NCBI RefSeq assembly: GCF_004010195.1
Contig: NC_057717.1
Span: 32,763,469 to 32,815,628 of the forward strand
Source: Chiloscyllium plagiosum
Taxonomy: Eukaryota
DNA: 52,160 nt
Reading direction: 5' to 3'
Positions 12,309-44,085 of the stretch are shown piece by piece; positions within the stretch are counted from its first letter, which is position 1; the number at the start of each line of letters is the position of its first letter. The notes below the pieces were generated by a model. The model worked only from the letters and a program-made list of their open reading frames with translations, searched no databases and was not told the DNA's origin. The position numbers and the translations under genes are program-made.

Positions 12309-12946
12309 GGTTAGTTGAGTGGTCAGCAGGCTGCAGGGCTGGATGGCTGAGAGGTGGGTAGTGTGCCAGGCTGGTAAGTTGAAAGGTGAGGGCAGTGCGG
12401 AGATGGTTGGGTTGAGGTGGGCTGGCTGCTAGGCTGGTTTGTTGAGTTGTCAACAGGGTACCAGGCTGGTCAGTTGAGAGAAGGGCAGGGTGTCAGGCTG
12501 GTTAGTTGAGAGTTCAATAGGGTATCAGTCTGGTTAGTTCAGTGCTGCTCAGGGTATCGGAGCGGTTAGTTGAGAATTTGGCAGAGTACCTGGGTGTTTA
12601 GTTGAGAAGTGGGCAGTGTGCCGGGCTCTTTAGTTGAGATTTTGGCAGGATGTCAGACTGGTTATTTGAGAGGTCGGAAGAGTGTCGGACTGGTTAATTG
12701 AGAGGTGGTCGGGTGTTTGGCTGGGGTTTGAGTGGGAAGCAGGGTGCTGGGCTGGTTGTTTGAGCGGTTTGCAGGGTGTCGGACTGATTAGTTGAGAGGT
12801 GAGCAGGGTGCCAGCCTGGTTATTTGAGAGGTGGGCAGGCTGTTGGGTTGGTTAGTTGAGAGGTGGACAGTGTGTCAGGCTGGTTAGTTGACAGGTGGGT
12901 GACCAGTCTGGTTGGTGATTTGAGTGGCTCAGAAAGGTATTCGGCT
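12309..12946 (+). repeat. G-rich 32-bp minisatellite, about 20 degenerate units (switch-region-like), upstream of Cmu1 copy 2
   Basis: Units align to the consensus GGTTAGTTGAGAGGTGGGCAGGGTGTCAGGCT, with strong G/T skew on the + strand. Confidence 0.92.
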
Positions 12947-13659
12947 GTGGATATGATGACAAAACGTAAAGCTCGGAGTTTGACGAAGTCATAGGCGGAT
13001 AAAGGGAAGTCGGGAAAAGAGCCATAATGCAATATGCACAGGTTGACTTGGGTAAGTTGAGAGTTCAGTGGTGAAGGTCTAAGGTCATGTCCGAGGGAGT
13101 GGCGTCCTGTCAGGGATTGTCAAAATTCTGGTGCCAGGACCAGGTTCACCACGGACCAGGTGCAGGGTGGCAGGGGTGGAATTGAGTGAAAGGAATCGGG
13201 ATTACTTTCTCGTCCATAATATGGATTGTCTTGAATGTGTGTTATGCCTTGTGATGGGAATCCTGTCTTCCAAGGGTGAATGAGTGTATCACAGTGTAGG
13301 GATTGTCAAAGTGAATGGAAAGTGACGTCGAGACAGAAAGTCAGAGCAGTGATTAATCTGACAGATTAGAGTTTTGCAATAAACTGCGTGTCAGTTTGAT
13401 AGTTATTGAAGTTAAAGAGTATTTGTTAATTTCTCGAATCATATTTACATAAATGCTCAGTTCAGCTAGCTGTCACACTCCAAAGTCTCCGAACCTTTAA
13501 TGGTCCTCTTTGTTTCAGAGGCCCCCAGAATTCAGATAATTGTCAAGTCGATCAATGAGCTTCCAGGCAATTAGCATGATATCAGCTGTGACAGATATTC
13601 TCTCAGGCCCAGTGCTCTGCAACTGCCTTATTTCTAGAGGGCGGATTTTGGCTGACATT

Positions 13660-13775
13660 GATAAGCTGGGAAGGTACAATGGACTCGAAACGTTCACTCT
13701 GGTTTCTCTCCACAGATGCTGCCAGTTGTCGGGTTTCTCCAGCAACTTCGGTTTTCATTTCCAATTCCAACTTCC
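13660..13775 (+). mobile_element. Degenerate Penelope-type terminal remnant
   Basis: gactcgaaacgttcactctggtttctctccacagatgctgccag...tccagcaacttcggtttt, with the same cgaaacgt...gatgctgcc...tccagca layout as the other Penelope termini. Confidence 0.55.
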
Positions 13776-14114
13776 ACGTTTTCTTGGTTTGTATTTTGTG
13801 AAAACTCTATGCTCGTCACTTGCAATCCAATGAAAGTGTCAGTTGGTGAGATTTTCAGCAGTTACTCTTCGTCAGATCAAGGTGTTCCTATTTCTAAATT
13901 AAATAGTAATGGTCAAGGTAGAGGGCATGTTTCTTCAGAGGGAACCAATAGATCATGATCAACGACTGATTGGAAACAAAAATAAATTCAAGGTATACTA
14001 AAGGTGTTAGCAGGAACACACTGGTATACGTTTACAACTGAGGAAACATTTGGGTAACCAAAAAGGTCGAATTAACAGAAACTAACTTGCTCAACTGGTC
14101 ATTCTATCCTTGAG

Positions 14115-14421
14115 ACTGCATCTCCCCCTAAACTTTATGGACTTGTCTTCTCCTGTCAGCAACACAACACTGACGGTTCTGTGATCTTTGGTTGTTTGGC
14201 CATGGACTATAACACTGACGTTACCAAGGTGACCTGGAAGAAAGGTGGAGTGCCAATCACGACTGCAGTGAAGACTTATCCATCCGTGAGGAACAACAAG
14301 GGAACTTACACCCTGAGCAGCCAGTTGACCCTGCCTGAGTCAGAGGCAGATTGCAGCGAACTCTCCTGTGAGGTTCAACACAGCGGGTCAAAGCAGAGCA
14401 CTGGAATGCTGTGTAAATCTT
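14115..14421 (+). pseudogene. IGHM: IgM Cmu1 exon (copy 2), open reading frame
   Basis: Reads [102 protein letters not shown]. The C1-set Cys/Trp/Cys and shark Cmu1 motifs are present. Exact splice boundaries are inferred. Confidence 0.92.
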
Positions 14422-14619
14422 GTAGGAACTGAGGTGAACAGCACACCTGTGGTTAACATGAATAGGGCATTAGTTATAACACATTTGACATCGTCATAGA
14501 GATATAGAGTACAGGAAAAGTTCCTGTGGTCCATCCAGTCCACACCTGTCAATAACAGCACCCTAACTATTCCAGTCCAGTATATCCGCAATTGACGCAT
14601 TGCTTTGTGTGACTTGACA

Positions 14620-16300
14620 TTTCTTATGTGCATCTGCATATTTCTCACATGTTATGCGGTGCCTAAACTCTTCAAGACTTACTCACACTGAGCTGCAGAT
14701 TCACACACTCTGTGTGATTTTGGTTTCCCCAATATCCTCCTGTCCTTACCTTAACCCTATGCCCTTGAGACATTGCTCCATCCATTCAGGGGAAAGGATT
14801 TGTCTTGTTTACTCTGTGTATGTCTACCGTAATTCGAGACATCACAATCATCTTCTCTCTCATTCTTCTCTGTTCCAAGTAAAACCCCAGTGTGGTTAAT
14901 GACATTCCATAACTTAAAAACTTCCAGTCCAGGAAAAGTCCTGGAAAATCTCAATAATGCTGCCTTCTGTCTAATCACATTCCTTCCATAACATGCAGTC
15001 CTATACATCACACAATGCTTCATGTCTGGCCTAACCAGTGTTTTATTAATTTCCAGTATCATCTCCCAACACCTAATGTAAATGTCTTGGATCATTAAAG
15101 CTATTACCCGACACACATTCTTAGTCTTTTTATCCACCTGCCACATTACTACAAGGGATCGATGGGCATGCACACCAAAAATCCTCAGTTCTTTTCACGG
15201 TTCCACCATTCAAAACATAATACGTCTTAGTTTCTTCTGACCAAGTGCATCACCTTACACTTATCCAGAATGATTTCCATTTTCTATCTCTTAACACAAG
15301 CAGCCAACCCTTCTGTACCTTGCTGCAATCTAAAGCTATCATGCTCACTACTTACCAACACGGCAATTTTCGTTTCATCTGTGAACTTACTGGCCAAATC
15401 TCTTGCATTGTATTCTAAATCGAGTTTACATAATAGAAACATCAATAAATCAACACTGATCCCTGCAGAACACCACGAGACATTTACTCCCATCCACACA
15501 AACATTCTATGACCATTACCCTCTGCACTCCGCCATTCAGCTAACTCAGTATTCAATTAATCAAATTAACTTGATCTCATCTGGCTCTGATCTTTACTAT
15601 CAACTGGAAATCGACTTACGTCTTCGATAACTAACATGACTTCCCCTCAATGAAATCGTGCTGACAATTTTTGATTAACCTTCCAGATGAAGGTTAATTC
15701 CCCTCTCCATAGTTACAATGTTTTCCCTACTACAATGCCGAACTTAAGCCGAGCCTGTGGTTTCATTGCTTTTCTCTTCGTCTGTCCTGCAAAACAATAC
15801 CACATTGGCAGTTTTACCATATCCCCAGGTGGCCAGGATTTATAAATTGTTGCCAGCCACCCACGACTTCATCCTTTGTTTGGCATACATTTTATCTACC
15901 CTGGAAATATTACTATTTTTTCATCCAGCAACACAGCACATCACATCATCTATCCTAATTTCTGAAAAAAAATCACAACACTTCACAATGTTTTCTATGT
16001 CCACATATTCCCTCACACTGGTGAACATCAACAATCTTCACCGCTCCCACTCCATCTTCATTTTTCCCTGTCTCACTTGAAGGCATTACATTTGGAATAT
16101 TGAACTGCCACTCCTGCCCCTCTCTCAGCATGTCTCCATGATTTCAATTGCACACTTCCTCCTTTGTACCGTTAACTCATCAGCATTGTTTATCATACTC
16201 CTTTCATTAAAATGAATACCATCCAAACTTGCTATCTCTCCCTCTGACTTAACTGGCCTATCATTTTTGTGCCTTATTGACCTCCTTGCTCTACCTCTAA
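14620..16300 (-). mobile_element. Old degenerate CR1 fragments in the Cmu1-Cmu2 intron (paralogue ~35330-36670)
   Basis: Minus-strand remnants SKFTDETKIA and KTLVRPDMKHCV, plus a CR1 3' region. Confidence 0.7.
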
Positions 16301-16453
16301 TTTTAGCATGACATTGTCATTATCACATCGCCCGTCTAATTGTACTGTGTTGATCTCAGCTTCTATAGCACTCTGGACAATTATGATGTTGGTAACATCA
16401 AGGTTCGTATCTATTAACCACAATAAACTTTGTTGCAAAAGAACTGAATGTAT

Positions 16454-16770
16454 GCTGTGGTTCTGTTCGCCGAGCTGGAAGTTTTTGTTGCAAATGTTTC
16501 TTCCCCTGTCTAGATGACATCCTCAGTGCTTGGCAGCCACCTGTGAAGCGCTTTTGTGGTGTTTCCTCCGGCATTTATAGTGGCCTGTCCCTGCGCTTCC
16601 GGTTGTCAGTTTCAGCTGTCCGCTGTAGTGGCCGGTATATTGGGTCCAGGTCGATGTGTTTGTTGGTGGAGTTTGTGGATGAGGACATGCCGCAACCCAA
16701 AGGACTAGCCACACTACCATACATCAAGAACATCTCTGAAATGACAGCCAGACTACTGCGACCACTAGGA
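16454..16770. mobile_element. Penelope-like element (inverted terminal segment plus RT C-terminal fragment), running into a gap
   Basis: 16454-16683 is antisense to the terminus at 26073-26345. It is followed on + by LATLPYIKNISEMTARLLRPLG, the PLE region between RT and GIY-YIG. Confidence 0.85.
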
Positions 16771-17254
16771 NNNNNNNNNNNNNNNNNNNNNNNNNNNNNN
16801 NNNNNNNNNNNNNNNNNNNNNNNNNNNNNNNNNNNNNNNNNNNNNNNNNNNNNNNNNNNNNNNNNNNNNNNNNNNNNNNNNNNNNNNNNNNNNNNNNNNN
16901 NNNNNNNNNNNNNNNNNNNNNNNNNNNNNNNNNNNNNNNNNNNNNNNNNNNNNNNNNNNNNNNNNNNNNNNNNNNNNNNNNNNNNNNNNNNNNNNNNNNN
17001 NNNNNNNNNNNNNNNNNNNNNNNNNNNNNNNNNNNNNNNNNNNNNNNNNNNNNNNNNNNNNNNNNNNNNNNNNNNNNNNNNNNNNNNNNNNNNNNNNNNN
17101 NNNNNNNNNNNNNNNNNNNNNNNNNNNNNNNNNNNNNNNNNNNNNNNNNNNNNNNNNNNNNNNNNNNNNNNNNNNNNNNNNNNNNNNNNNNNNNNNNNNN
17201 NNNNNNNNNNNNNNNNNNNNNTGTCAGATAATTTATACGATGTTTTTCATAAAG

Positions 17255-17310
17255 GTCCACTTCTCCAACAACCCTTCTTCTGATCATGAGTCCCAGTGAA
17301 GAAATCGCAA
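17255..17310 (+). pseudogene. IGHM: IgM Cmu2 exon, 5' portion (copy 2)
   Basis: tttttcataaag| acceptor, then SPTTLLLIMSPSEEIA. It joins SSRFATIVC at 21528 once the CR1 is removed. Confidence 0.85.
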
Positions 17311-20300
17311 CATAGAACATATAACATAGAACAATACAGCACAGAACAGGCCTTTCGGCACATGATGTTGTGCCGAACATTTGTCCTAGCTTAAGCACCT
17401 ATCCATGTACCTATCCAATTGCCACTTAAAGGTCATCAATGATTCTGACTCTGCCACTCCCACAGGCAGCGCATACCATGCCCCCCCCACTCTCTGGGGA
17501 AAGAACATACCCCTGACATCTCCCCTATACCTTCCACCCTTCACCTTTATTTTTTTGTCGCCTTGTAACACTCTGTTGTACCTGGGGAATAAGCCTCTGA
17601 CTGTCTACTCTATCTATTACCCTAATCATCTTATAAACCTCTATCAAGTCACCCCTCATCTTTCGCCGTTCCAATGAGAAAAGGCCTAGCACTGTCAACC
17701 TATCCTCGTACGACCGATTCTCTATTCCAGGCAACATCCTGGTAAATCTCATCTGTACCCTCTCCAAAGCTTCCACATCTTTCCTAAAATGAGGCAACCA
17801 GAACTGCACACAGTACTCCAGGTCCTGTACAGCTGCAACATCACCTCACGACTCTTGAATTCAATCCCTCTGCTAATGTACATTACTACGCCACAGGCCT
17901 TCTTACAATCTCTATCCACCTGAGTGGCAAGTTTCAAAAAGCTATGAACATAGACCCCAAGATCCCTCTGCTCCTCCAACTTACTAAGAACCCTACCGTT
18001 AACCCTGTACTCCGCATTCTTATTTGTCTTTCCAAAATGGACAACCTCACACTTGACAGGGTTGAACTCCATCTTCCACTCCTCAACCAAGCTCTGCATC
18101 ATATCTAAGTCCCTTTGCAGCCGACAACAGCCCTCCTCACTACCTAAAAACTCCACCAATCTTCGTATCGTCTGCAAAATTTCCTGACACAACGTTCGAA
18201 TCCCTCTTCCAAGTCATTAATAAACATTACAAACAGCAGAGGACCCAGAACTGATCCCTGCGGAACTCCACTTGTAACTGGGCTCCAGGCTGAATATTTA
18301 CCATCTACCACCACTCTCTGACTTCGACCGATTAGCCAGTTCTCTATACAGCTGGCCAAATTTCCCACTATCCCATGCTACCTGACTTTCCGCATAAGCC
18401 TACCATGGGGAACCTTATCAAATGCCTTCTTAAAATCCATGTACATTACATCCACTGTTCTACCCTCTTCCACATGCTTGGTCACCTCCTCAAAGAATTC
18501 AATAAGACTTGTACGGCAAGACCTACCCCTCACAAATACTTTCTGGCTGTCCCTAATCAAGCAATGTCTTTCCAGATACTCATAAATTCTATCCCTCAGT
18601 ACCCTTTCCATTACTTTGCCTATCACCGAAGTAAGACTAACTGGCCTATAATTCCCGGGGTTATCCCTATTCCCTTTTTTGAACAGGGATGTAACATCCG
18701 TCACTCTCCAGTGCCCTGGTACCACCCTCGTTGACAGTGAAGACGAATAGATCATTGCCAACGGCTCTGCAATTTCTCTCTTGCTTCTCACATAATCCTA
18801 GGATATATCCCGCCAGGCCCGGGGGACTTGTCTTTCCTCAAGTTTTTCAAAATGCCCAACACATCTTCCTTCCGAACAAGTATCTCCTCCAGCTTACCAG
18901 TCTGTTTCATACTCTCCTCTTCAACAATACGGTCACTCTCATTTGTAAATACTGAAGAAAAGTACTCATTCAAGACCTCTCCTGTCTCTTCCGACTCAAC
19001 ACACAGTCCCCCACTACTGTCCTTGATCGAACCTACCCTCGTTCTCGTCATTCTCATGTTTCTCACATACGTATAAAAGGCCTTGGGGTTATCCTTGATC
19101 CTCCCCGCCAAATATTTTTCATGCCATCTCTAAGCTCTCCTAATCCCTTTCTTCAGCTCCCTCCTGGCTATCCTGTATCCCTCCAATGCTCGTCTGAACC
19201 TTGTTTCCTCAACCTTATGTAAGCCTTCTTTTTCCTCTTTACAGGACATTCAACCTCCCTCCTCAACCAAGGTTCCCTCACACGACCATCTCTTTCCTGC
19301 CTGACAGGTACATACATATCAAGGGCACGTCGTATTCGTTCCTTGAAACATTTCCACATTTCAATGACATCCTTCCCTGACAGCCTATGCTCCCAACTTA
19401 TGCTCCTCAGATCTTGTCTTGCAGCACTCCCTCATCCAAGTCATTAATAAAAATTACGAACAGCAGAGGACCCAGAACTGATCCCTGCGGAACTCCACTT
19501 GTAACTGGGCTCCAGGCTGAATATTTACCATCTACCACCACTCTCTGACTTCGATTGGTTAGCCAGTTCTCTATCCAACTGGCCAAATTTCCCACTATCC
19601 CATGCTACCTGACTTTCCGCATAAGCCTACCATGGGGAACCTTATCAAATGCCTTATTAAAATCCATGTACATTACATCCACTGATCTACCCTCATCCAC
19701 ATGCTTGGTCACCTCCTCAAAGAATTCAATAAGACTTGTACAGCAAGACCTACCCCTCACAAATCCTTGCTGGCTGTCCCTAATCATGCAGTGTCTTTCC
19801 AGATACTTATAAATCCTATCCATCAGTACCCTTTCCATTACTTTGCCTATCACCGAAGTAAGACTAAGTGGCCTATAATTCCAGGGGTTATCCCTATTCC
19901 CTTTTTTGAACAGGGATGCAACATTCGTCACTCTCCAGTGCCCTGGTACCACCCCCGTTGACAGTGAAGACGAATCGATCATTGCCAACGGCTCTGCAAT
20001 TTCTCTCTTGCTTCTCACATAATCCTAGGATATATCCCGCCAGGTCCGGGGGACTTGTCTATCCTCAAGTTTTTCAAAATGCCCAACACATCTTCCTTCC
20101 TAACAAGTATCTCCTCCAGCTTACCAGTCTGTTTAATACTCTCCTCTTCAACAATACGGTCACTCTCATTTGTAAATACTGAAGAAAAGTACTCATTCAA
20201 GACCTCTCCTATCTCTTCCGACTCAACACACAGTCCCCCACGACTGTCCTTGATCGAACCTACCCTCGTTCTCGTCATTCTCATGTTTCTCACATACGTA

Positions 20301-21527
20301 TAAAAGGCCTTGGGGTTATCCTTGATCCTACCCGCCAAAGATGTTTCATGCCATCTCTAAGCTCTCCTAATCCCTTTCTTCAGCTCCCTCCTGGCTATCC
20401 TGTATCCCTCCAACGCTCTGTCTGAACATTGTTCCCTCAACCTTATGTAAGCCTTCTTTTTCCTCTTTACAGGACATTCAACTCCCTCGTCAACCAAGGT
20501 TCCCTCACACGACCATCTCTTTCCTGCCTGACAGGTACATACATATCAAGGGAACGTCGTATTCGTTCCTTGAAACATTTCCACATTTCAATGACATCCT
20601 TCCCTGACAGCCTGTGCTCCCAACTTATGCTCCTCAGATCTTGACTTGCAGCATCGTATTTACCCTTCCCCCAATTGTAAAACCTACCCTGTTGCACGCA
20701 CCTATCTCTCTCCGTAACCAAGGTGAAAGTCTCAGAATTATGGTCACCATCACCAAAATGCTCATCCACTAACAAGCCCTTCACTTTTCCCGGTTCGTTA
20801 CCAAGTACCAAATCCAATATGGCCGCCCCTCTGGTCGGACAACCCACATACTGAGTTAGAAAGGATTCCTGGACACACTGCACAAACACCGCCCCGTCGA
20901 ATCTACTTGATTTAAAGAGCTTCCAATCAATATTTGGGAAGTTGAAATCGTCCATGACTACTACCCTGTGGCTTCTGCACTTTTCTAAAATCTGTTTCCC
21001 AATCTGTTTCTCCACATCTCTGCTGCTATTGGGTGGCCTATATAAAACACCCAACATGGTGACTGTTCCTTTCCTGTTTCTGACTTCATCCCATATTACC
21101 TCCAAAGGGAGATCCCCCTCGAACTGCCTTTCTACAACCGTTATACCATTTCTAATTAGCAACGCCACACACCCCTTCTTTTTTACCACCCTCCCTCATC
21201 TTATTGAAACATCTATAATCAGGGACCTCCAACAATCATTTCTGTCCCTCTTCTTTCTACGTTTCCGTGATGGCCACAACATCGTAGTCCCAAGTACCGA
21301 TCCACGCCTTAAGTTCACCCACCTTATTTCTGATACTCCTTGCGTTGAAGTATACACACTTGAACTCATCTCTGTGTCTGCAAGTATTCCCTGTCAGTAC
21401 TACTTTCTCCACAGCATCCCAACATTCTTGGACATCCTGAAAAACAGCTAACCTACTTGCTGGACTACAAGTCTGGATCCCATCCCCCTGCCAAATTAGC
21501 TTCAACCACCGCCCATGAAGAGTGCTA
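17311..21527 (-). mobile_element. CR1 LINE (5'-truncated, APE + RT) inserted antisense in Cmu2 copy 2, with an internal ~1227-bp tandem duplication
   Basis: Motifs YFNARSIRNK, VAITET, YRPPN, DFNFPNIDW, NYRPVSLTS, DFxKAFDKVPH and [10 protein letters not shown]. The (catagaa)-type 3' tail is at 17311. Paired ORFs are offset by 1227 bp. Confidence 0.95.
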
Positions 21528-21782
21528 GCAAGTAGTCGGTTTGCAACCATTGTCTGTTCAATCATTGAATTCCATCTGAAGCAAATCTCCATGATTTTGT
21601 TGAAAAATGACCAATCCGTGGATTCTGGTGTCTTCACATCTCCTGTGTGTGAGGTGAATGGGAATTTCTCGGTAATGAATCGGCTGACCGGCTGTTATGG
21701 CGAATGGTTCAACAGCGCATGTTTACCTGCCAGGTCACTCACGGAAAGAACACTCAAAGTCAAAACATCAGCACACCCCAGG
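21528..21782 (+). pseudogene. IGHM: IgM Cmu2 exon, 3' portion (copy 2)
   Basis: Reads [47 protein letters not shown]... The core Trp is lost and there is a 1-nt deletion before the second Cys. G|GTAAG donor. Confidence 0.9.
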
Positions 21783-21849
21783 GTAAGACATACATACGAG
21801 AGCACTAGAAATCATTCTGAACTCCGATGTGAATCAGATACACACATTT

Positions 21850-22931
21850 ATCAAACTTAGTCAACAGCACTAAAGTGTGCAGCATCGCATTCACAAACGT
21901 GTCATGCATTTCAGTTTGAGTGTGACATTAGCATTGCTCATAATTCAACATTATGTCTAATCAGAAGAGTATGTTTTCCTCTGTATTGAAGACATGTGAG
22001 CTGGCTTAACAGTCTTTTTTATAAAGTGGTTTGATGGCTGACCACACTTGGAGAGGCATTAGAGTGCCGAATCAATGCCTGGTGAGTTTATTTAGCGGCT
22101 GGGGAGGGGTGCTTGTCTTGTGTGGGCCGGAGCATTAGGGTCACAGTGGTATTATTTTGAAACTTAAAACATAGAGAAAGGCCGAGTTTTGCTGAACGTG
22201 GAGTTTTGACAAGTCGGCGAGAGTAGGACACGAGGGCATAGCCTCGAAGTCAATGGGTGCACCATTTGTAACTGAGGTGGGGAAGAATTTCTTCAGCCAG
22301 AGAGTGGTGGAATTCATTACCACAGACGGTTATGGAGGCCAAGTCAGTGACTGTATTTAAGATGGCGATTGATCGGTAAGGACATGGAGAATCAAACTTA
22401 GTCAACAGCACGAAAGTGTGCAGCATCGCATTCACAAACGTGTCATGCATTTCAGTTTGAGTGTGACATTAGCATTGCTCATAATTCAACATTATGTCTA
22501 ATCAGAAGAGTATGTTTTCCTCTGTATTGAAGACATGTGAGCTGGCTTAACAGTCTTTTTTATAAAGTAGTTTGATGGCTGACCACACTTGGAGAGGCAT
22601 TCGAGTGCCGAATCCATGCCTGGTGAGTTCATGTAGCGGGTGGGTAGGGGTGCTTGTCTTGTGTGGGCCGGGGCATTAGGGTCACAGTGGTATTATTTTG
22701 AAACTTAAAACATAGAGAAAGGGCGAGTTTGGGTGAACGTGGAGTTTGGACAAGTCGGCGAGAGTAGGACACAAGGGCATAGCCTCGAAGTCAATGGGTG
22801 CACCATTTGTAACTGAGGTGGGGAAGAATTTCTTCAGTCAGAGAGTGGTGGAATTCTCTCCCACAGACGGTTATGGAGGCCAAGTCAGTGACTGTATTTA
22901 AGATGGCGATTGATCGGTAAGGACATGGAGA
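21850..22931 (+). repeat. Direct tandem duplication, 2 x ~541 bp, specific to copy 2
   Basis: atcaaacttagtcaac...ggacatggaga occurs at 21850-22390 and 22391-22931, but only once in copies 1 and 3. Confidence 0.92.
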
Positions 22932-24152
22932 AGGCTGGAGAATGTGGGAGAGAAACATATCACACATGATCGAATGGCAGGGCAGACTCGATTGGCCGAA
23001 TTGCCTCATTCTGCTACTATATCTTACTATCTTGTGGTCTCAAAATAACAAGGTAAAATATGCAGTGACCCTTTTTGCAAAATAAATCAAAATGTGTTCA
23101 ATGCTTCATTTCCTGCTCAGGAATGACCTGTTGGACTTGGGCATTGTACATCATAGATTTTATCTGGTAGTGAGCTCTTTAACTTCATTCATGGGAGCAG
23201 GCCGCAGAGCAAGTTGCTATCACATTTGATCAATCCGGATAAACAGGACCTAATTGAAACTCTTTAAGGTACTCTCTGCAATTAGTGGATGTGGCAGGAG
23301 AAAACATTTTAGTGGGATGGCTGCAGTAGCGATGAACGAACGAGGAATTAGAGTCAGGCCTATTCAGCCTGGTGTCAGGATGGAGATGTTCACACAGTGA
23401 TCAGTGGAAGTCTGAATAATGCTCACGCAAATTTCCATTAATTTGTATAAAAAATGTTAGATACACGTATTTGTTTTGTTTTTATTCTCCTAAGAAATTC
23501 AATTTTTGGTTTTTAGACCTACCACAAATTTGACAGGAGGAATAATATCTCATGTTATGTTTTTGAGAATGATCTCACACCAATAATACAAATAATTTAC
23601 AATAACGTTAAACACATTGAACAGAATTTCTGTGACTGATAACTGCCCCGTAACACCTTTAAACGCCTGCAAACGCATGAGAAAAAAGAAAATAATTATG
23701 ATTGATTACAGTTTGTTAAAAGTTGGGGATGGAATTTGACATTCAGAATGCCCAGCAGCATTTGCAAGTAAGTTTCATGAATATAGAAATGAAGTCGTTA
23801 TATTCGGATTAAGCTTGGCAAAAGTATCAAAGTATGGTCCTAAGTGAGAGAAGAGCTCTGAAAGGAAGGTAATTCCATGTGTCACGTCATGGTATCTTTG
23901 ATTTTACTTTTTCACAGGTTTCCCTAGTTACAAACCCAGAGTTCTTTATGAATGATTACATGGGTGATGTTATAGATAATAACAAATGTTTTCACAAATC
24001 AAAATATATCAGCAAGAGGAACCATCATTTCAGCAACATTTGGAAGCTGCCATGTCAAAGGTGGTTTCTTCACTTCATGAGTGAATAGCCTGAAGACTCG
24101 GTGTTTTGATCCTAAAGAGGCATTTTTCATTGATTTGATTTCTGTTTCAGAG

Positions 24153-24460
24153 GAGTTACTGATTGTCACGATTACACAGTTACACTCCGACCACCGCCAT
24201 TAGAACACATCTTACTGGAGGCGACGGTGACATTAACCTGTGTTGTGTCCAATCTTTCTTCTGGTGCCAATGTCACCTTGTACAAGAAAAGAAGACTCTG
24301 AAATCAGAGATCTCTAATCGGCCTAGAGAAAATCCCGACAGCGTGACTAGCAAATTCAGCACTTCTACTGAAGCCTGGATGAGTCACGTTAGTTTTGAAG
24401 GTTTGGTGAACCATCTGTATCTACTGACTCCACTGAGAGACTCCATTCACAAGGAAAATG
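24153..24460 (+). pseudogene. IGHM: IgM Cmu3 exon (copy 2), frameshifted
   Basis: Reads [51 protein letters not shown]...TEAWMSHVSFEGLVNHLYLLTPLRDSIHKEN, then G|GTGAG donor. It has a 1-nt deletion and the second Cys changed to Gly. Confidence 0.92.
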
Positions 24461-24925
24461 GTGAGCGGTGAGATGAAAAAACAAGGCATCCTATGTGTCA
24501 TCTCGATCCAGTAAAATACATGACATGCTTGGATTGGCTCCTAATAACATTGGGAGCATTAAACATGTGTCTGATGTCAGGATAGCTAAATATCTGATTG
24601 AGAACAAGATGGACCAAAGCTTGTTCTTTTTTCATTATAAGTCAAATAAAGTGTGAAAAAGCCTGGTTTGTGTTTTTAACATCAGCAATGACAAATGTAC
24701 AGGAGGTCTTAGTTATAGGTTGGAAACAGGAAACATGGAGGCGATTTTCTAATTAAACCCTTTACTCTTAATGATTAGGATGGATATCATTCTGCTCGAT
24801 CAGAAAATGAGAGTGTATAAATCCCAAATTTAAAAACAAAACTGGCACATTTTAATATGTCTGAAATTGCAATATTAATTTTGGATTTTTATAGTGGATT
24901 TATATTTGTTTCAAATATTCTGCAG

Positions 24926-24962
24926 GAGAAACGCTACTGGAGCCATCAGTGTCGATCCTCCT
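24926..24962 (+). pseudogene. IGHM: Truncated IgM Cmu4 5' stub
   Basis: ttctgcag|gagaaacgctactggagccatcagtgtcgatcctcct is identical to the start of the full exon at 28054 and is then followed by unrelated sequence. Confidence 0.88.
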
Positions 24963-25369
24963 TTTATTGTCGAGATGAACAATTAAAGTGATGGATCAAT
25001 GGCTGTGGCTGTTCAGACAAGTTACATTTTGTTCCTCTCTGAGCTGAAATATATAATAATGTTACCTGAACACCAACGTGAACTATGGAAGGTCTGGTTG
25101 AACATTCCACTGATTGCATACTCCATCCCTGTTACCTGCTCCATTTAGGAGTTATTTGTAATTTATAATTTGAAAATATTTTTATATGTGGCTTCATAAT
25201 TATTGTACAATGAATGCATGTCTTCCAAGTAATTTGCTAAAATGAAAATATTGTTTTATTAAATTAAATCCTTATTTTTATTTTCTCATTCTTCAGCTAT
25301 GCCCAGTACACTCTCCTCAGGTCCCTTTATGGTTCAATATGAACATCTCGTATTCTCAGGCCTGAAGTG

Positions 25370-25725
25370 CCCTGATCTTGTAGAGGCCATGAGTGGCATG
25401 AATATGGTTATTTTCCAAGGTCGGAGAAGTCCAAACTAGCGGGGATAGATTTAAGGTGAAGGGGCAAATTTAAAAAGATACCTGAAGGGGTAACTTTTTT
25501 ACACAGAGGGTAGTGTGTGTACGAAATGAGATGGCAACGAAAGTGATGGAGGCTGGCACAATTACAGCATTTAAGAGGCAATGGATGAGTATGTGAATAA
25601 GAACCATTTAGAGGATCATGGCTCTAATGCTGGCAAAGATTACTACATCAGATTGAAATATCTGGTCCGTGCAGATAAGCTGGACTGAAGGGTCTGTTTC
25701 CGTGCTGTATGACACTATGATTCCA
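25370..25725 (+). mobile_element. Degenerate CR1 3'-end fragment
   Basis: gatttaaggtgaaggggc...tttttacacagagggtagtg...ggactgaagggtctgtttccgtgctgtatgac. Confidence 0.75.
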
Positions 25726-25877
25726 TCAGGCCCTCATTCTAGCAAAGAGTAAAGTGAAACATCAGTGAAAAGCTTCTAAAACCATTGCACATTTTTCTTT
25801 CAGTTTAGGAGTTCATTACTAGACACAATACATCAGATGTTGCTGTGGTTCTGTTCGCCGAGCTGTAAGTTTTTGTT

Positions 25878-25917
25878 GCAAACGTTTCGTCCCCTGTCTA
25901 GTTGACATCCTCAGTGC
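25878..25917 (-). ncRNA. Minimal hammerhead ribozyme motif
   Basis: GCA CUGAGGA U GUCAACU AGAC AGGGGAC GAAA CG UU UGC; stem II is weakened by mismatches. Confidence 0.6.
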
Positions 25918-26227
25918 TTGGGAGCCTCCTTTGAAGCGCTTCTGTGGTGTTTCCTCCGGCATTTATGGTGGCCTGTCCTTGCCGCTTCCGGTTGTCAGTT
26001 TCAGCTGTCTGCTGTAGTGGCCGGTATATTGGGTCCGGGTCGATGTGTTTGTTGATGGAGTTTGTTGAGTGGATCATCCACAAACTCCATCGGCAAACAC
26101 ATCGACCTGGACCCAATATACCGGCCACTACCGCGGACAGCTGAAACTGACAACCGGAAGTGGCAGGGACAGGCCACTATAAATGCTGGAGGAAACACCA
26201 CAGAAGCGCTTCACAGGAGGCTCCCAA

Positions 26228-26267
26228 GCACTGAGGATGTCACCTAGACAGGGGACGAAACGTTTGC
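26228..26267 (+). ncRNA. Minimal hammerhead ribozyme motif
   Basis: GCA CUGAGGA U GUCACCU AGAC AGGGGAC GAAA CG UU UGC, giving the core, a stem II hairpin, GCA/UGC stem I and an AACGUU palindrome. Confidence 0.72.
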
Positions 26268-27574
26268 AACAAAAACTTCCAGCTCGGCGAACAGAACCAC
26301 AGCAACGAGCACCCGAGCTACAAATCTTCTCACAAACTTTGAACACTAGTGTCTGTGTAACCAGGGATCTTGTACCAATGCAGTAGTTGACAGAATGCAT
26401 GTTAATTTCCCCAACAAAGAGACGAGAAAGGAAGGTTATTGTTGTTCATCCGAAGGAGGAGGAGAGGGGAACGATTAACGGTCTGGACTCTGACTCACTC
26501 TGCAGAGTTTTCAAGATAGAAGTCCACTGTAATGTACCACTGTCGCTGACAGGAACAGTCAGCTTCTTCTTTACTGTCCGAAGATTCCATCTTTCCATGC
26601 AAAATAATACCTCTGAGTATGCGAAACATGATTGACCCTGTTAATCGTTTGTTAACATTGACTCCCCTTAATCCTAAACTGGTATTTGCATCATCCCAGT
26701 TTGAAGTCCATAGTTTTGTCTCAGTTTTCTGGAGCACATGGGAGAAATTCTGGTGTTCGAACTTCTGACATAGTTTGCTTCACGTACAGAATATTTATAG
26801 ATGTTTTGTAATCAACATGTTCGGAAATGTAAGTCTGCATGTCTGGAATAGTGGAAATTTGAGCTCACGTGTCTTGTCTCAGAGACAGAAATTCAATCGC
26901 TGCAACAAAGGAGTAGCTCACATCGAGGGCTGAAGGGCCTGGTTTGCGCAGTTTTGTTCTATATTCTAAAACATTTTTCTCTCCACGACGGTCAGAAATG
27001 TTCCTGACAACATCAGGATCAGACATAATTGTTGACAATCCATTAAAACACAAAAATAATGCAAATTATAGTCTAGTATAAGAGCTGAAACAGTTACAGA
27101 GAGATGCTCACAAATACATACGCAAAAACACATACACAGCCTCTCACCTAAAGACACATGTTTATGCACATACATAAACTTGCACACAGATGAACTGTCA
27201 CACACGTTTGCATACACACAGCTACATATGCAAATGGTACTTAAAACACTCATCTCGCCCCCAGAAAAACGCATATTCACAGAAAAAATAGCACATGCAC
27301 AAATGAACAAGGATATCCGCACATAACTGAGAAAAGCGCAGACGCACATTAATACACAAATGGACATGACTGCATTTCTATTCATGCAGCATAATGCTGA
27401 TAGACATACATTCATACGCACACAGATACAACATCTGAAAATTTAATTCCCACGTGTAGGCACGCACAGGCACGTATGAGCACAGGTTAAATAAATATTA
27501 GTTCTTAATTTTCATAATCACAAACGTATGATTGCAGAGGCAGCTTATTTTATTTTGAAACCACTTGATCAGCA

Positions 27575-28090
27575 TCACAAGGAAAATGGTGAGCGGTGAG
27601 ATGAAAAAACAAGGCATCCTATGTGTCATCTCGATCCAGTAAAATACATGACATGCTTGGATTGGCTCCTAATAACATTGGGAGCATTAAACATGTGTCT
27701 GATGTCAGGATAGCTAAATATCTGATTGAGAACAAGATGGACCAAAGCTTGTTCTTTTTTCATTATAAGTCAAATAAAGTGTGAAGAAGCCTGGTTTGTG
27801 TTTTTAACATCAGCAATGACAAATGTCCAGGAGGTCTTAGTTATAGGTTGGAAACAGGAAACATGGAGGCGATTTTCTAATTAAACTCTTTACTCTTAAT
27901 GATTAGGATGGATATCATTCTGCTCGATCAGAAAATGAGAGTGTATAAATCCCAAATTTAAAAACAAAACTGGCACATTTTAATATGTCTGAAATTGCAA
28001 TATTGATTTTGGATTTTTATAGTGGATTTATATTTGTTTCAAATATTCTGCAGGAGAAACGCTACTGGAGCCATCAGTGTCGATCCTCCT
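27575..28090 (+). repeat. Near-identical duplicate of 24447-24962 (Cmu3 3' tip, intron and Cmu4 start)
   Basis: tcacaaggaaaatggtgagcgg...gtcgatcctcct is repeated with only a handful of substitutions. Confidence 0.92.
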
Positions 28091-28445
28091 GCCACCAACA
28101 GAAGACATTTCCGCTAAGAGGTTTCTCTCCCTCACCTGTTTAGTGAGAGGCTTCTCTTCCCGAGAGATCTTAGTCAAGTGGACAAACAATGACAAGCCAG
28201 TTAATCCCAGTAACTACAAGAACACCGAGGTGATGGCGGAAAGCGAGAGCACCTCCTTCTTCATGGACACCCTGTTGTGCATTACAACAGAGGAGTGGGC
28301 CAGTGGTGCTTCTTATTCCTGTGTGGTGGGACATGAAGCGATTCCACTGAAGATCATCAACAGAACAGTCGATAAATCCAGCGGTAAATCAAGTTTTGTG
28401 AACATTTAACTTGCACTGATGGGCATTATTAATTCATGTCAATAA
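28054..28445 (+). pseudogene. IGHM: IgM Cmu4 plus secretory tailpiece (copy 2), premature stop in the tailpiece
   Basis: Reads [49 protein letters not shown]...[50 protein letters not shown]. The internal membrane donor G|GTAAA is at 28383/4 and AATAAA at 28481. Confidence 0.95.
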
Positions 28446-28931
28446 AATTTCGAAGATGTTTTTAATAATTCAACAAAAGTAATAAAGCTTTTTCTTCCAA
28501 TTGTGATTTAAATATACAACCGTTTAATTAATTGTGCTTCTCACTTTTAATTATATTCCAGTTGTAAAGTTAAGGTGGATTAGTAACAGGTGTTGGACTC
28601 ATGCCTTGTGCAGTAAATGTTCCCTGCTCGGACAAAGTTAAGATCAGAGATAGAGTAAAGCTCACGCATTGCCGGATTCTGCAAAGTAACTCTTCCATTT
28701 TAAATTCCAATAAAACGAAATCTGAAAATCCCCAATTTCTGTCAAGTGAACAACACGAATTTTGAAATTGGTTTTCCTGATTCCTCGATTGCACATTCTT
28801 ACGAAATTCATGTCGGCTTTCAACTGCCACAATGCAACAATTGGGAACGCAATCTGAAGAGACATTTGAAATTAGTTTTGATTGGAAAATACCAATCACA
28901 AAGAGTGCAGATTAAGTTGAATATAACACTA

Positions 28932-29603
28932 CTGTTGCAAACGTTTCATCCCCTGTCTAGGGGACATCCTCAGTGCTTGGGAGCCTCCTGTGAAGCGCGC
29001 CTGTGGTGTTTCTTCCGGCATTTATAGTGGCCTGACCTTATCGCTTCCGGTTGTCAGTTTCAGCTAAAACTAAGGACCTGATACCCAGCATGAGCAAAAC
29101 TAACGTAGTGTACAAACTCCCATGCAAGGACTACACAAAACACTATATAGGACAAACAGGAATAAAGCTATCGATCCGCATCCACGAACATCAACTAGCC
29201 ACGAAACGACACGACCAGCTATCCCTAGTAGCCACACACGCAGACGACAAGCAACATGAATTTCACTGGGACAACACGACCATTATAGGGCAAGCGAAAC
29301 AAAGAACAGCCATGGAATTCCTAGAAGCTTGGCACTCATCCACAAACTCCGTCAACAAACACATCGACCTGGACCCAATATACCTGTCACTACAGCGGAC
29401 AGCTGAAACTGACAACCAGAAGCAGCAGGGACAGACCACAATAAATGCCAGAGGAAACACCACAGACGTGCTTCACAGGAGGCTCCCAAGCACGGAGAAT
29501 GTCACCTGGACAGGGGACGAAACGTTTGCAACAAAAACTTCCAGCTCGGCGAACAGAACCACAGCAACGAGCACCCGAGCTACAAATCTTCTCACAAACT
29601 TTG
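28932..29603 (+). mobile_element. Penelope-like retroelement: inverted 5' segment, GIY-YIG endonuclease and terminus, with a 7-bp TSD
   Basis: Reads NVVYKLPCKDYTKHYIGQTG..LSIRIHEH...FLEAWH. AACACTA flanks it at 28925-28931 and 29604-29610. Confidence 0.92.
28937..28976 (-). ncRNA. Minimal hammerhead ribozyme motif (duplicate at 44576-44615)
   Basis: GCA CUGAGGA U GUCCCCU AGAC AGGGGAU GAAA CG UU UGC, with a fully paired 7-bp stem II. Confidence 0.72.
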
Positions 29604-32600
29604 AACACTAGTGTCTGTGTAACCAGGGATCTTGTACCAATGCAGTAGTTGACAGAATGCATGTTAATTTCCCCAAGAAAGAGACCAGAAAGGAAGGTTA
29701 TTGTTGTTCATCCGAAGGAGGAGGAGAGGGGAACTATTAACGGTCTGGACTCTGACTCACTCTGCAGAGTTTTCAAGATAGAAGTCCACTGTAATGNNNN
29801 NNNNNNNNNNNNNNNNNNNNNNNNNNNNNNNNNNNNNNNNNNNNNNNNNNNNNNNNNNNNNNNNNNNNNNNNNNNNNNNNNNNNNNNNNNNNNNNNNNNN
29901 NNNNNNNNNNNNNNNNNNNNNNNNNNNNNNNNNNNNNNNNNNNNNNNNNNNNNNNNNNNNNNNNNNNNNNNNNNNNNNNNNNNNNNNNNNNNNNNNNNNN
30001 NNNNNNNNNNNNNNNNNNNNNNNNNNNNNNNNNNNNNNNNNNNNNNNNNNNNNNNNNNNNNNNNNNNNNNNNNNNNNNNNNNNNNNNNNNNNNNNNNNNN
30101 NNNNNNNNNNNNNNNNNNNNNNNNNNNNNNNNNNNNNNNNNNNNNNNNNNNNNNNNNNNNNNNNNNNNNNNNNNNNNNNNNNNNNNNNNNNNNNNNNNNN
30201 NNNNNNNNNNNNNNNNNNNNNNNNNNNNNNNNNNNNNNNNNNNNNNNNNNNNNNNNNNNNNNNNNNNNNNNNNNNNNNNNNNNNNNNNNNNNNNNNTTTT
30301 GATGGGAGCAGAGTCATTAGGGGCATTTAAGCGACTGCATTGCATGCTCATTTACTGCAGTGAATTGAGGGGTACGCAGGTTAGGTTATTTTATTTTAGG
30401 TTTGGAATAATCCTCAACATAACATCGTGGGCAGAAGGGCCTGTTGTGTGCCATACATTGCTATGTTTAATTGTTAGTCGCATGGAATATGACAGCTTGA
30501 ATTGAAAGAATGGATTTACAAAATGTAATTTTGTTTAGTGAACTATTGAAGATTTTGCAATTGGAAAACGAAGGACTAAATGAGTGCAACAGTGTTCATT
30601 TGTTGTACCAAATTAATGGCTTTGCATAACTTTTTCACACATTCTCTAACAAATGTGCTGTGTATTTGACGCTACTGGAATAAAAAAAACTCTGGGAGAA
30701 GTCTTTTGCATGCTCTCAGTAGTACTGTTTCTTACTCAGTCGAAGCATTGATTTGATGGGATTCTACATTGCACCCCTGAGCGGCTTTCTAAACTTGGAC
30801 TGAACTGATCCATATATTAAGTTGTTTATGCAGCAACTTAAATTGCACAGCATGAATCCAACCGTTTGTAATATGAATTCGAAAGTTTTGTAATCTCTTG
30901 TATTTGCTCCTCTAATGTTATAGAATAAGTAATATATATATCACGCACCTTTGACAAAAGAATGAAGCTGCCAGCTCTGCTGGAGAGTAAAATCTTAGAC
31001 GTCCTCCTGCTCTCCATTTCTGCGTCATTGTAATTATCTTTAGTGCTCTGACATCTCAGTCTCTTCCAGATGTGACTACTCACAAACATGTGTCGAAAGG
31101 TCAGAGGTTTCAGTAAAACAAAATTAAAACGAATGGGAGGAAATAATAAGATAACACCAAGCCAGGATCAGTATAACAGAACCATGACACATATTATATG
31201 ACCTCACCAGCTTCCAGTATAAAGCAATGAGGCATGTTTTTTTCAACCAGTCGTTGCTTAAACCACGGCTGCTGTTCTCTCAGAGAAATATGTTCCACTC
31301 AGATACTGACAACTAATGGCTCCAAACCAATCAATTGATTAATTAACGGTGTATCAGATTGAACATCCTGTTGTTGCACAATGCAGGGCATGGGTAACTC
31401 TTCACACAGCTGGAATGAGAAAGAAATATGGTGGGATATAATAAGTGATCCGCCACAGTATGTCTTCTGTGATAACAAGTAGTAGAAGTGCAATTGCCAT
31501 AGCCAGTAACTAACGAGTGATACAAATCAAAAAGCCACATTTTCCATGTGACAGGATCAATATAGCCACTAAATCTGCGGTAATCGAAACAGAACAACAA
31601 AAGAAGGGTATGTTAAATCATTCCACCTGACAATAGTTCAACATTCTTATTTGTCTATGGTAGATCAGTATGTACACATTGAAAAATCTCCTAAGACAAT
31701 CTCAGGAATTACAAATTAATGAAATAAAATAAAACATATTTCAAATGGTGATTTTGTTGTATGAAAGCCCAAAATGTGGAAAGTTGACTGATCTGTCAAA
31801 GCTGTCCGAGTCTGCCAGCAATGATTAAAAGTTATTAACCTGAGGATATAATGGTCAAACTAGACAGAGACAGTGCACTGACATGAATGGGATTGTGAAT
31901 GGGCAATCACATAACAACACCGAGTTCATGAAGAATTAAGTCACTCATATTCTGGAACATTCGAGATAGAACAAGGTATTAATTGAGTTTTAGGAGAATG
32001 TAGAACGGAAATATCTAATTTTGCTATGTGATTGATCATTATAACGAGACGATATACGTTATAAAATAATTGTAGTTTATTCTGAATTGCTTTACCCTGA
32101 TGGGTTGTATCGAAACAATGCGAAAGAGGAGATCAGTTGTTGAATGGACTGAGAGTTGAGAAAAAGCATACCATAGGGAAATGTGTATGAAGTGCATGCG
32201 AATGTTGGGGAATTCTGTTCTGCAAGGAATGGTGACGAGTACCTTGTCATTTGCAATTTTCATAAACAGTGAATTTGAAAAGCAGAAGCACATTTCACAA
32301 CATAGACATATAACCTGAAGGAGAAAGTGAGGACTGCAGATGCTGGAGATCAGAGCTAAAAATGTGTTGCTGGAAAAGCGCAGCAGGTCAGGCAGCATCC
32401 AAGGGAGCAGGAGAATCAACGTTTCGGAAATGAGCCCTTCTTCAGGAAAAATGACTCATTGCATTATGGGAAGACAAATCTGGTCACAACTGAAAGTGAA
32501 TGATAGTGCAATGATTCATGTTACCGAACATAGTCGCCTGGTGATTCAGATAAAAAGATTCTTAGACTGTCAATGATAGGGCAATAGGTGGCTTTGTCGA

Positions 32601-33173: not shown

Positions 33174-33826
33174 GGTTAGTTGAGTGGTCAGCAGGCTGCA
33201 GGGCTGGATGGTTGAGAGTTGGGTAGTGTGCCAGGCTGGTAAGTTGAAAGGTGAGAGCAGTCCGGAGCTGATTGGGGTGAGGTGGACTGTCCTGTTCCCT
33301 GGATGCTGCCTGACCTGCTGTGCTGTTCCAGCAATAAAGTTTCAACAATTGTTGAGTTGTCAACAGGGTAACAGGCTGGTCAGTTGAGAGAAGGGCAGGG
33401 TGTCAGGCTGGTTAGTTGAGAGTTCAATAGGGTATCAGTCTGGTTAGTTCAGTGGTGCTCAGAGTGTCGGAGCGGTTAGTTGAGAATTTGGCAGAGTACC
33501 TGGGTGTTTAGTTCAGAAGTGGGTAGTGTGCCGGGCTCTTTAGTTGAGATGTTAGCAGGATGTCAGATTGGTTATTTGAGAAGTGGTTGGGTGTTCAGCT
33601 GGGGAGTTGCGTGGGAAAAAGGATGCTGGGCTGGTTAGATGAGCGGTTTGCAGGGTGTCTGACTGATTAGTTGAGAGGTGAGCAGGGTGCCAGCCTGGTT
33701 ATTTGAGAGGTGGGCAGGTTGTTGGGTTGGTTAGTTGAGAGGTGGACAGTGTGTCACACTGGTTAGTTGAGAGGTGGGTGGCCAGTCGGGTTGGTGCGTT
33801 GAGTGGCTCAGAAGGGTATTGGGCTG
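33174..33826 (+). repeat. G-rich 32-bp minisatellite (switch-region-like), upstream of Cmu1 copy 3
   Basis: Same unit as 12309-12946, with one unit fewer near 33580 and a ~60-bp Penelope-type fragment at ~33287-33348. Confidence 0.92.
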
Positions 33827-34824
33827 TGGATATAATGACAAAACGTTAAGCTCGGAGTCTGACGAAGTCACAGGCGGTAAAGGGAAGTTGGGAACAGAGC
33901 TATAGTGCAATATGCACAGNNNNNNNNNNNNNNNNNNNNNNNNNNNNNNNNNNNNNNNNNNNNNNNNNNNNNNNNNNNNNNNNNNNNNNNNNNNNNNNNN
34001 NNNNNNNNNNNNNNNNNNNNNNNNNNNNNNNNNNNNNNNNNNNNNNNNNNNNNNNNNNNNNNNNNNNNNNNNNNNNNNNNNNNNNNNNNNNNNNNNNNNN
34101 NNNNNNNNNNNNNNNNNNNNNNNNNNNNNNNNNNNNNNNNNNNNNNNNNNNNNNNNNNNNNNNNNNNNNNNNNNNNNNNNNNNNNNNNNNNNNNNNNNNN
34201 NNNNNNNNNNNNNNNNNNNNNNNNNNNNNNNNNNNNNNNNNNNNNNNNNNNNNNNNNNNNNNNNNNNNNNNNNNNNNNNNNNNNNNNNNNNNNNNNNNNN
34301 NNNNNNNNNNNNNNNNNNNNNNNNNNNNNNNNNNNNNNNNNNNNNNNNNNNNNNNNNNNNNNNNNNNNNNNNNNNNNNNNNNNNNNNNNNNNNNNNNNNN
34401 NNNNNNNNNNNNNNNNNNNNNNNNNNNNNNNNNNNNNNNNNNNNNNNNNNNNNNNNNNNNNNNNNNNNNNNNNNNNNNNNNNNNNNNNNNNNNNNNNNNN
34501 NNNNNNNNNNNNNNNNNNNNNNNNNNNNNNNNNNNNNNNNNNNNNNNNNNNNNNNNNNNNNNNNNNNGCAGTTACTCTTCGTCAGATCAGGGTGTTCCTA
34601 CTTCTAAATTATATAGTAATGGTCAAGGTAGAGGGCATGTTTCTTAAGAGGGAACCAATAGATCATGATCAACGACTGATTGGAAACAAAAATAAATTCC
34701 AGGTATACTAAAGATGTTAGCAGGAACACACTGGTATACGTTCACAAATGCGGGAACATTTGGGTAACCAATAAGGTTGAATTTACAGAAACTAACTTGC
34801 TCAGCTGGTCATTCTATCCTTGAG

Positions 34825-35132
34825 ACTGCATCTCTCCCCAAACTTTATGGACTTGTCTTCTCCTGTCAGCAACACAACACTGACGGTTCTGTGATCTTTG
34901 GTTGTTTGGCCATGGACTATAACACTGACGTTACCAAGGTGACCTGGAAGAAAGGTGGGGTGCCAATCACGACTGCAGTGAAGACTTATCCATCCGTGAG
35001 GAACAACAAGGGAACTCACATCCTGAGCAGCCAGTTGACTCTGCCTGAGTCAGAGGCAGATTGCAGCAAACTCTCCTGTGAGGTTCAACACAGCGGATCA
35101 AAGCAATAAAACTGGAATGCTATGTAAATCTT
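34825..35132 (+). pseudogene. IGHM: IgM Cmu1 exon (copy 3), premature stop
   Basis: Reads [16 protein letters not shown]...GCLAMDY...W...[14 protein letters not shown] at 35107-35109 plus one extra base relative to copy 2. Confidence 0.92.
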
Positions 35133-37511: not shown

Positions 37512-37818
37512 TGGATGCGGATCGTTAGCTGTCTTTCTGTTTGTCCTATATAGTGTTTTGTGCACTCATCCACAAACTCCATCAACAAACACATCGACCT
37601 GGACCCAATATACCGGCCACTACAGCGGACAGCTGAGACTGACAACCGGAAGCGGCAGGGACAGGCCACTATAAATGCCGGAGGAAACACCACAGAAGCG
37701 CTTCACAGGAGGCTCCCAAGCACTGAGGATGTCACCTAGACAGGGACAAACTTCCAGCTCGGCGAACAGAACCACAGCAACTAGCACCCGAGCTACAAAT
37801 CTTCTCACAAACTTTGAA
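37512..37818. mobile_element. Penelope-like element 3' terminus with a short inverted GIY-YIG fragment
   Basis: Minus strand reads CTKHYIGQTERQLTIRI at 37512-37565. The plus-strand terminus matches 26073-26345 and the hammerhead GAAA box is deleted. Confidence 0.85.
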
Positions 37819-37876
37819 CTGAATGTATATTTTTTATCAAATTTGTCAGATAATTTATACAATGTTTTTCATAAAG

Positions 37877-44083: not shown

Positions 44084-44085
44084 AA

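Follow-up and report, generated by a model that had tools for sequence, protein, structure and literature searches.

A CR1-type LINE in the Cmu2 exon of three IgM pseudogene copies of Chiloscyllium plagiosum, very probably a single insertion older than the duplications

In the nurse shark, IgM clusters, sorted into Groups 1-8, are spaced at least 120 kb apart and include pseudogene clusters (Groups 6-8 and G2C) that coexist with functional ones (PMC2435157). In bamboo sharks, 37 IgM clusters have been reported for one species (PMC8692893). The nurse shark also has IgM1gj, an IgM without Cmu2 (PMC5192425, PMC4279169); it is expressed, its VDJ is already joined in the germline and its three C domains are functional. 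As to mobile elements, the target site duplications (TSDs) of CR1/L2 elements peak at 3-5 bp, and an annealing pathway has been described for them in which the overhang left at the target, a short one, base-pairs with the nascent cDNA and truncated inserts result (PMC4245944). HER1, a LINE of sharks and rays named alongside the HE1 SINE, is listed in PMC3747384.

The 52,160-nt stretch of Chiloscyllium plagiosum DNA analysed here (the window) contains three paralogous copies, A, B and C, of an IgM constant-region pseudogene, about 5-6% apart. Self-alignment delimits A at 1-3296, B at 9417-29250 and C from 30297 onwards, with 90-95% identity and a B-C homology that extends over about 14 kb. The order Cmu1-Cmu4, secretory tail, TM1 is the same as in the IgM miniloci of Ginglymostoma (P0003, P0005) and Chiloscyllium punctatum (P0004). 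Unlike these, however, all copies here are dead, Cmu2 holds a LINE and no VH, D or JH was found in the window. Pseudogene clusters are also known in the nurse shark (PMC2435157), but clusters there keep their distance of at least 120 kb, whereas the present copies lie about 20 kb apart in the assembly, a spacing that crosses nominal gaps. The features are as follows.

1-1100, minus strand: copy A LINE, 5' part (ORF2 aa 3-324 of P0012), clipped by the window start
1101-1357, plus strand: copy A Cmu2 3' piece, beginning with ACAA; private +1 frameshift near 1175
3191-3296, plus strand: copy A Cmu3 start, open; the gap cuts the exon ahead of the B/C frameshift site
3297-3796: 500-N gap between A and B, nominal size
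14112-14414, plus strand: copy B Cmu1, open frame, C1-set domain, about 77-78% identical to P0004
17255-17310, plus strand: copy B Cmu2 5' piece, ending with GCAA; out of frame with its own acceptor, a lesion also present in C
17311-21527, minus strand: copy B 5'-truncated CR1-type LINE with endonuclease and reverse transcriptase ORF2 and a microsatellite-like 3' tail at 17311, multiply disabled
18201-20653: 1227-bp tandem duplication within the B element, in B only (18201-19426 and 19428-20653; 3.35% apart)
21528-21782, plus strand: copy B Cmu2 3' piece, beginning with GCAA; private -1 frameshift near 21720
24154-24460, plus strand: copy B Cmu3 with a -1 frameshift near 24279 and a Cys>Gly change, both also in C
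28055-28445, plus strand: copy B Cmu4 and secretory tail; private stop at 28407-28409
29797-30296: 500-N gap between B and C, nominal size
34822-35125, plus strand: copy C Cmu1; private +1 frameshift near 35107
37877-37932, plus strand: copy C Cmu2 5' piece, ending with GCAA; the out-of-frame lesion of B is present
37933-40847, minus strand: copy C LINE insertion, 2915 bp, aa 3-926 of the 936-aa ORF2 P0012; private 88-bp deletion
40848-41103, plus strand: copy C Cmu2 3' piece, beginning with GCAA; private stop at 41025-41027
42940-43246, plus strand: copy C Cmu3; -1 frameshift near 43068 and Cys>Gly in common with B
43706-44083, plus strand: copy C Cmu4 and secretory tail; private 15-bp deletion
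47779-47910, plus strand: copy C TM1 exon, 91% identical to P0004

The exon order Cmu1-Cmu4 and the secretory tail were placed by tblastn with intact IgM. Four C1-set Cmu exons occur in order, with shark IgM as best match, as a whole set in B and C and as a partial one in A; a secretory tail follows Cmu4 in B (with a stop) and in C, and the TM exon was placed in C. Cmu1 is closest to shark IgM heavy chains, with Chiloscyllium punctatum P0004 at about 77-78%, and the identity of single exon pieces to P0004 ranges from 64 to 91%. No copy has open frames in all its C exons, each of them bearing frameshifts or stops. Searches for V, J and RSS gave no credible match anywhere in the window, including the 10.3 kb upstream of B Cmu1, and neither a V region nor a D segment was found within the window; the VH-D-D-JH segments that precede the constant exons in a shark IgM locus may lie beyond the gap.

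The LINE interrupts Cmu2 in antisense orientation between EEIA and SSRF. At the left junction, GCAA (17307-17310 in B, 37929-37932 in C) is followed by the reverse-complemented 3' tail of the element. At the right junction the exon resumes with GCAA at 21528-21531 in B and 40848-40851 in C, and with ACAA at 1101-1104 in A. B and C are base-identical at the junctions on both sides; A was compared at the right junction, its left one being outside the window. An earlier note on this DNA had described the contacts of the Cmu2 5' piece with the CR1 tail and of the CR1 5' end with GCAA, as well as matching junctions at 37932/40848 and a right-hand one at 1101 (ACAA), and all of these proved correct base by base. 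An intact Cmu2 was expected to read continuously across the junction, and the intact bamboo-shark IgM P0004 (Chiloscyllium punctatum) does so, with EEIASSKFATIVC uninterrupted across the insertion site and SSSEEIASSKFATIVC unbroken over the junction position. The claim that removal of the element restores the frame, in turn, applies locally but not to the whole exon. Ig exons are phase 1; read in this phase from the acceptor AG at 17253-54 (B) or 37875-76 (C), both copies run into a TGA once 8 codons have been read, the opening 43 nt of Cmu2 being out of frame with EEIA.

The element is 4217 bp long in B (17311-21527) and 2915 bp in C (37933-40847), and its part in A (1-1100) is clipped by the window start; the greater length in B is due to the B-only 1227-bp tandem duplication, with 3.35% divergence between its units. 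On the minus strand lies an ORF2 with APE-type endonuclease and reverse transcriptase domains (PF14529/PF03372, PF00078), which covers aa 3-926 of the intact 936-aa P0012, the closest intact ORF2 found, at about 70% identity. Since the sequence ends about 140 bp upstream of ORF2, and ORF1 and the 5' UTR are absent, the element is 5'-truncated. Its 3' tail consists in C of 5.6 repeats of a 7-bp unit (37931-37970), and the B tail is alike. CR1-type elements have a microsatellite-like 3' tail, with no poly(A) and no LTRs, and by its ORF2 and tail type the present element is probably one of them, in agreement with the earlier note. The short TSD and 5' truncation of the CR1 type are both seen here, as GCAA on both sides and as the missing ORF1 and 5' UTR. 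In all three contig runs (3/3), summed contig depth was mostly 10^5-10^6 over the element versus 10^1-10^4 over the flanks; the element belongs to a very high-copy family.

Is GCAA a target duplication or a microhomology? The question had been put in these terms, but it probably poses a false alternative: the four bases are likely to be a target duplication and a 5' microhomology at once. The AA of the left GCAA also fits the tail unit of the element. At the other end, the translations of related elements run on past the truncation point, as RFAR in P0015 and, in the next frame, as EVC in P0013; taken together, they imply that the element itself would have GCAA on the plus strand at this point, as judged from relatives of 41-44% identity in which an offset of 3-4 nt occurs farther inside. 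The Cmu2 site fits the annealing model, in which the same four bases may have served as TSD and microhomology. Formally the site could represent anything from a 4-bp duplication down to a 2-bp target loss, TSD length being inseparable from microhomology. Set against CR1/L2 integration as described in PMC4245944, the insertion has the same 5' truncation, 4-bp duplication, junction microhomology, endonuclease and reverse transcriptase ORF2 and repeat tail, and we found no difference.

In this model, integration would have proceeded by target-primed reverse transcription from a plus-strand nick after GCAA, the final AA of the nicked GCAA pairing with the terminus of the tail of the element. Another nick, four bases off, would leave an overhang, which could anneal to the GCAA that the newly made cDNA has a short distance upstream of ORF2. 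Annealing at this position would set the 5' truncation point and yield a 4-bp duplication that doubles as microhomology.

The identical target base and identical 5' truncation point, found inside alignments of 2-3.6 kb with 90-95% identity, exclude chance. We consider it nearly certain that one insertion preceded the duplication of the copies, and very probable that the LINE inserted just once, antisense at one base of Cmu2, before DNA-level duplications made the three IgM pseudogene copies. A single antisense insertion older than the copy split had been proposed earlier, and the proposal is upheld by the same junctions, by the equal divergence of element and flanks and by ORF2 lesions in common. 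Between B and C, the element differs at 155 of 2858 positions (5.4%) and the flanks at 441 of 9242 (4.8%; p=0.17). Five ORF2 lesions relative to P0012 are common to B and C (stops at aa 45, 52 and 459, frameshifts near 70 and 463), next to 4 private ones in C and 6-7 in B. Three of the five sites are spanned by A, which has the aa-52 stop and the aa-70 frameshift; its TTT at aa 45, in place of the stop of B and C, counts against the single origin. These common lesions could also stem from the template RNA, in which case the interval inferred before duplication would be shorter. In a protein tree with four distant relatives as its only outgroups, the closest about 70% identical, A, B and C are joined at 100/100, but 33 of 500 shuffles equal this value, and the tree thus suggests only weakly that the three elements may be monophyletic. 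Private changes in the flanks are similar in number in all three copies, which argues for two duplications close in time.

The element of copy A has about twice as many private changes as the A flank (44/968 versus 53/2105, p=0.004), an observation that counts against a single origin. When 28 private changes of the A element were sorted by direction, 17 led away from the family, 3 towards it and 8 neither way; this pattern is more in keeping with error or local mutation than with an origin of its own. A as an outgroup and conversion of the A element by another family copy are not supported. Absolute dating at the 7e-10 per generation given in PMC10587355 was tried and rejected, as it yields implausibly old dates.

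How far can the arrangement of the copies be trusted? A is separated from B, and B from C, by a gap of exactly 500 N. Gaps of this kind mark scaffold joins. A breaks off in Cmu3, and the sequence past the gap has no match to what lies further downstream in the unit, which makes the gap size nominal. The amplified, triplicated block of the earlier note is therefore retained as three paralogs but not as a tandem block, its boundaries being nominal 500-N gaps. The copies are real paralogs, 5-6% apart and with private lesions, and their spacing runs across these gaps. It is unlikely that the three copies are partly a product of assembly, with scaffolding having placed haplotigs or chimeric contigs from just one or two loci next to each other. 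The 500-N gaps, which cannot contain the missing sequence, the 516-bp repeat in B, only 0.78% diverged, and the small share of transitions (just 128 of 284 single private changes) would agree with this, but a divergence of 5-6% with private indels and stops would not, and in a diploid three versions cannot come from fewer than two loci. Moreover, the units of B's internal duplication share derived bases against A and C (14 and 5 sites), and a contig from an independent run crosses the Cmu3 lesion ungapped over 198 nt, with 8 differences, and so suggests that the Cmu3 frameshift is genuine. An assembly product would in any case bear on the adjacency of the copies more than on their existence. 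Sharks have many similar IgM clusters, 37 in one bamboo shark (PMC8692893), and the A element is more diverged than its own flank; both points would suit independent insertions at a preferred site in separate clusters, or gene conversion between existing clusters. In independent insertions, however, neither the 5' truncation base nor the disabling lesions would coincide, and conversion of the element by itself would leave it younger than the flanks, which is not what we observe, while the B-C homology spans about 14 kb. We hold independent insertion or conversion to be extremely improbable, and for B and C it is largely refuted.

That an already damaged gene was copied, as the earlier note had it, is supported by the Cmu2 and Cmu3 frameshifts and the Cys294Gly change common to B and C, the last two both in Cmu3, where the frameshift is -1. 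Whether the insertion was the disabling event is another matter: the LINE does predate the copying, but other B/C lesions are of comparable age. Common and private lesions stand at 2:5 in the exons versus 5:11 in the element (Fisher p=1.0). Of 301 positions at which three intact IgMs agree, B and C have both changed at 40, B only at 11 and C only at 10, and the endonuclease part of the element has a similar ratio (15 of 105 changed in both, 4 in B only, 4 in C only), the common counts of 40/301 and 15/105 being upper bounds that include divergence during the functional phase. Conserved residues changed in both copies amount to 12 of 66 in Cmu2 versus 28 of 235 in the other exons (p=0.22). Gene death and insertion are alike in age, both about 2-4 times as old as the split, and their order is unreadable from such figures.

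A single early insertion might thus have hit a gene already killed by the Cmu2 5' or the Cmu3 frameshift, so that the LINE would be a passenger marker and not the cause. That B and C have in common two frameshifts in Ig exons and the loss of a core cysteine agrees with this, as do the like lesion ratios of exons and element, which give no order, and a Cmu2 decay not significantly above that of the other exons. We give this possibility somewhat less than an even chance; against it, the element's pre-split decay equals or exceeds that of the exons, so the gene had not been long dead before the element arrived. Because the element's pre-split decay is no less than the exons', we lean slightly towards the LINE as the first hit. 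Under the single insertion before copying that we prefer, the gene would have died at about the time of insertion, with either the LINE or a Cmu2 or Cmu3 frameshift coming first. The dead gene would have decayed for about 1-3 times the time since copying, two copyings would have followed in close succession, and each copy would have decayed independently after duplication.

Skipping of a phase-1 Ig exon preserves the reading frame, and the exon damaged here is the exon absent from nurse shark IgM1gj. The insertion could in principle have caused Cmu2 skipping and given rise to a functional IgM of three domains, comparable to IgM1gj, that was retained, underwent amplification and died later. The precedent of IgM1gj, likewise without Cmu2 (PMC5192425, PMC4279169), is joined on this side by the B/C pN/pS of Cmu1 (0.23) and Cmu4 (0.48) and by the Cmu3 of A, open over its visible part. 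However, the split Cmu2 has an equally low pN/pS (0.43), so protein selection cannot explain it there, and Cmu2 is without an excess of common decay (p=0.22). The Cmu3 frameshift and the loss of the core cysteine predate the B/C split. IgM1gj differs in being expressed, in having its VDJ joined in the germline and in its three functional C domains. B and C, with the frameshift and the cysteine loss in Cmu3, do not combine a working Cmu1, Cmu3 and Cmu4, the Cmu3 of A is cut by the gap, and no V, D or J was found in the window. We regard such a functional phase as very unlikely. The same holds for its broader implication, a three-domain, IgG-like IgM that reached the IgM1gj type by an independent route and was selected for a while, possibly still in A.

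The substitution pattern of the exons deserves a separate comment. Between B and C, 24 of 61 exon differences are synonymous versus 27% expected (p=0.02), more than neutral decay predicts and thus a point against the history preferred here, and pN/pS is 0.45 in the exons versus 0.86 in the element (p=0.03). In comparisons with A, the dead element itself has values of 0.56-0.58, and the A/C exons reach 1.96. Because of these values and the 0.43 of the split Cmu2, the low B/C exon pN/pS is tentatively taken as noise or conversion. A CpG effect is insufficient as its source. A signature of somatic hypermutation was rejected, tandem private changes numbering 24 of 308 versus 17.7 expected. One of 1895 RNA reads was at least 99% alike; it was not taken as evidence of expression. 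Of 309 joints in the read alignment, none among the 15 listed crosses the element, and the loose ends listed include none at the junctions, which speaks neither for nor against the insertion.

A search by title and abstract, in which most subscription journals and the classic shark Ig papers were not covered, found no report of a LINE-split shark Cmu exon, and the main text of PMC7677710 contains nothing on IgM. A protein search with the Cmu2 piece gave nine candidates, none of which matched it, and an exact DNA pattern search of metagenome contigs gave no match. In a scan for related loci, 2 of 104 candidates were distant, degraded loci.

The history of this locus is probably one of ordinary turnover of shark antibody gene clusters: a LINE insertion, the death of a cluster and its duplication at a later time, when dead. 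Pseudogene clusters of Ig genes and LINE insertions with short TSDs are already known, and specialists are unlikely to be surprised. The case indicates nevertheless that dead shark IgM clusters can still duplicate, so that cluster number need not follow selection for more antibody genes, and that raw counts of IgM clusters include amplified pseudogenes. The junction itself, a presence/absence character with little homoplasy, can serve to order IgM duplications across carpet sharks.

Of the three paralogous IgM constant-region pseudogene copies, B carries two tandem duplications of its own and a further repeat, and C carries a duplication behind its secretory tail:

18201-20653, copy B, tandem duplication of 1227 bp within the antisense CR1-type element that splits Cmu2 (3.35% between units)
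21850-22931, copy B, tandem duplication of 541 bp in the Cmu2-Cmu3 intron (3.33% between units)
24447-24962 and 27575-28090, copy B, 516-bp repeat from the end of Cmu3 to the start of Cmu4 (0.78% diverged)
44085-44574 and 44888-45377, copy C, 490-bp duplication directly 3' of the secretory tail, enclosing a repeat fragment (2.45% diverged)

The tandem duplications of B are separate, equal in apparent age (3.35% versus 3.33%), and both younger than the split of B from A and C. The units of the 516-bp repeat lie 2.6 kb apart, with downstream-flank sequence in the spacer; either this repeat was produced by a rearrangement not long ago, or two haplotypes were joined there when the genome was assembled. 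Changes between copies are transversion-rich (transitions make up 128 of 284 single private changes across A, B and C), with no excess of tandem changes among the private changes, and this pattern may reflect some assembly error. At the Cmu3 splice acceptor (24150-24153 in B), B reads GAG where A and C read TAG, and a CAG stands two bases upstream.

Repeated fragments in both orientations occur at:

16448-16770
25837-26344
29036-29606, with a GIY-YIG-like frame at 29036-29608
37562-37819

A Pfam search with these fragments gave no match; we take them to be, probably, of Penelope type. One lies just 5' of the Cmu2 acceptor in B, and likewise in C.

Upstream of Cmu1, where a tetrapod switch-like region would lie, B and C carry degenerate G-rich arrays (66-68% matches):

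12308-12899, copy B, 32-bp tandem array, 18.6 copies
33364-33778, copy C, 32-bp tandem array, 13 copies

In nurse shark, according to PMC2435157, JH lies 6.3-6.8 kb from Cmu1, whereas in B our search of the 10.3 kb that precede Cmu1 (3797-14111) gave no credible match to a VH, JH or RSS. The V(D)J part of B may have been deleted, or may lie beyond the assembly gap.
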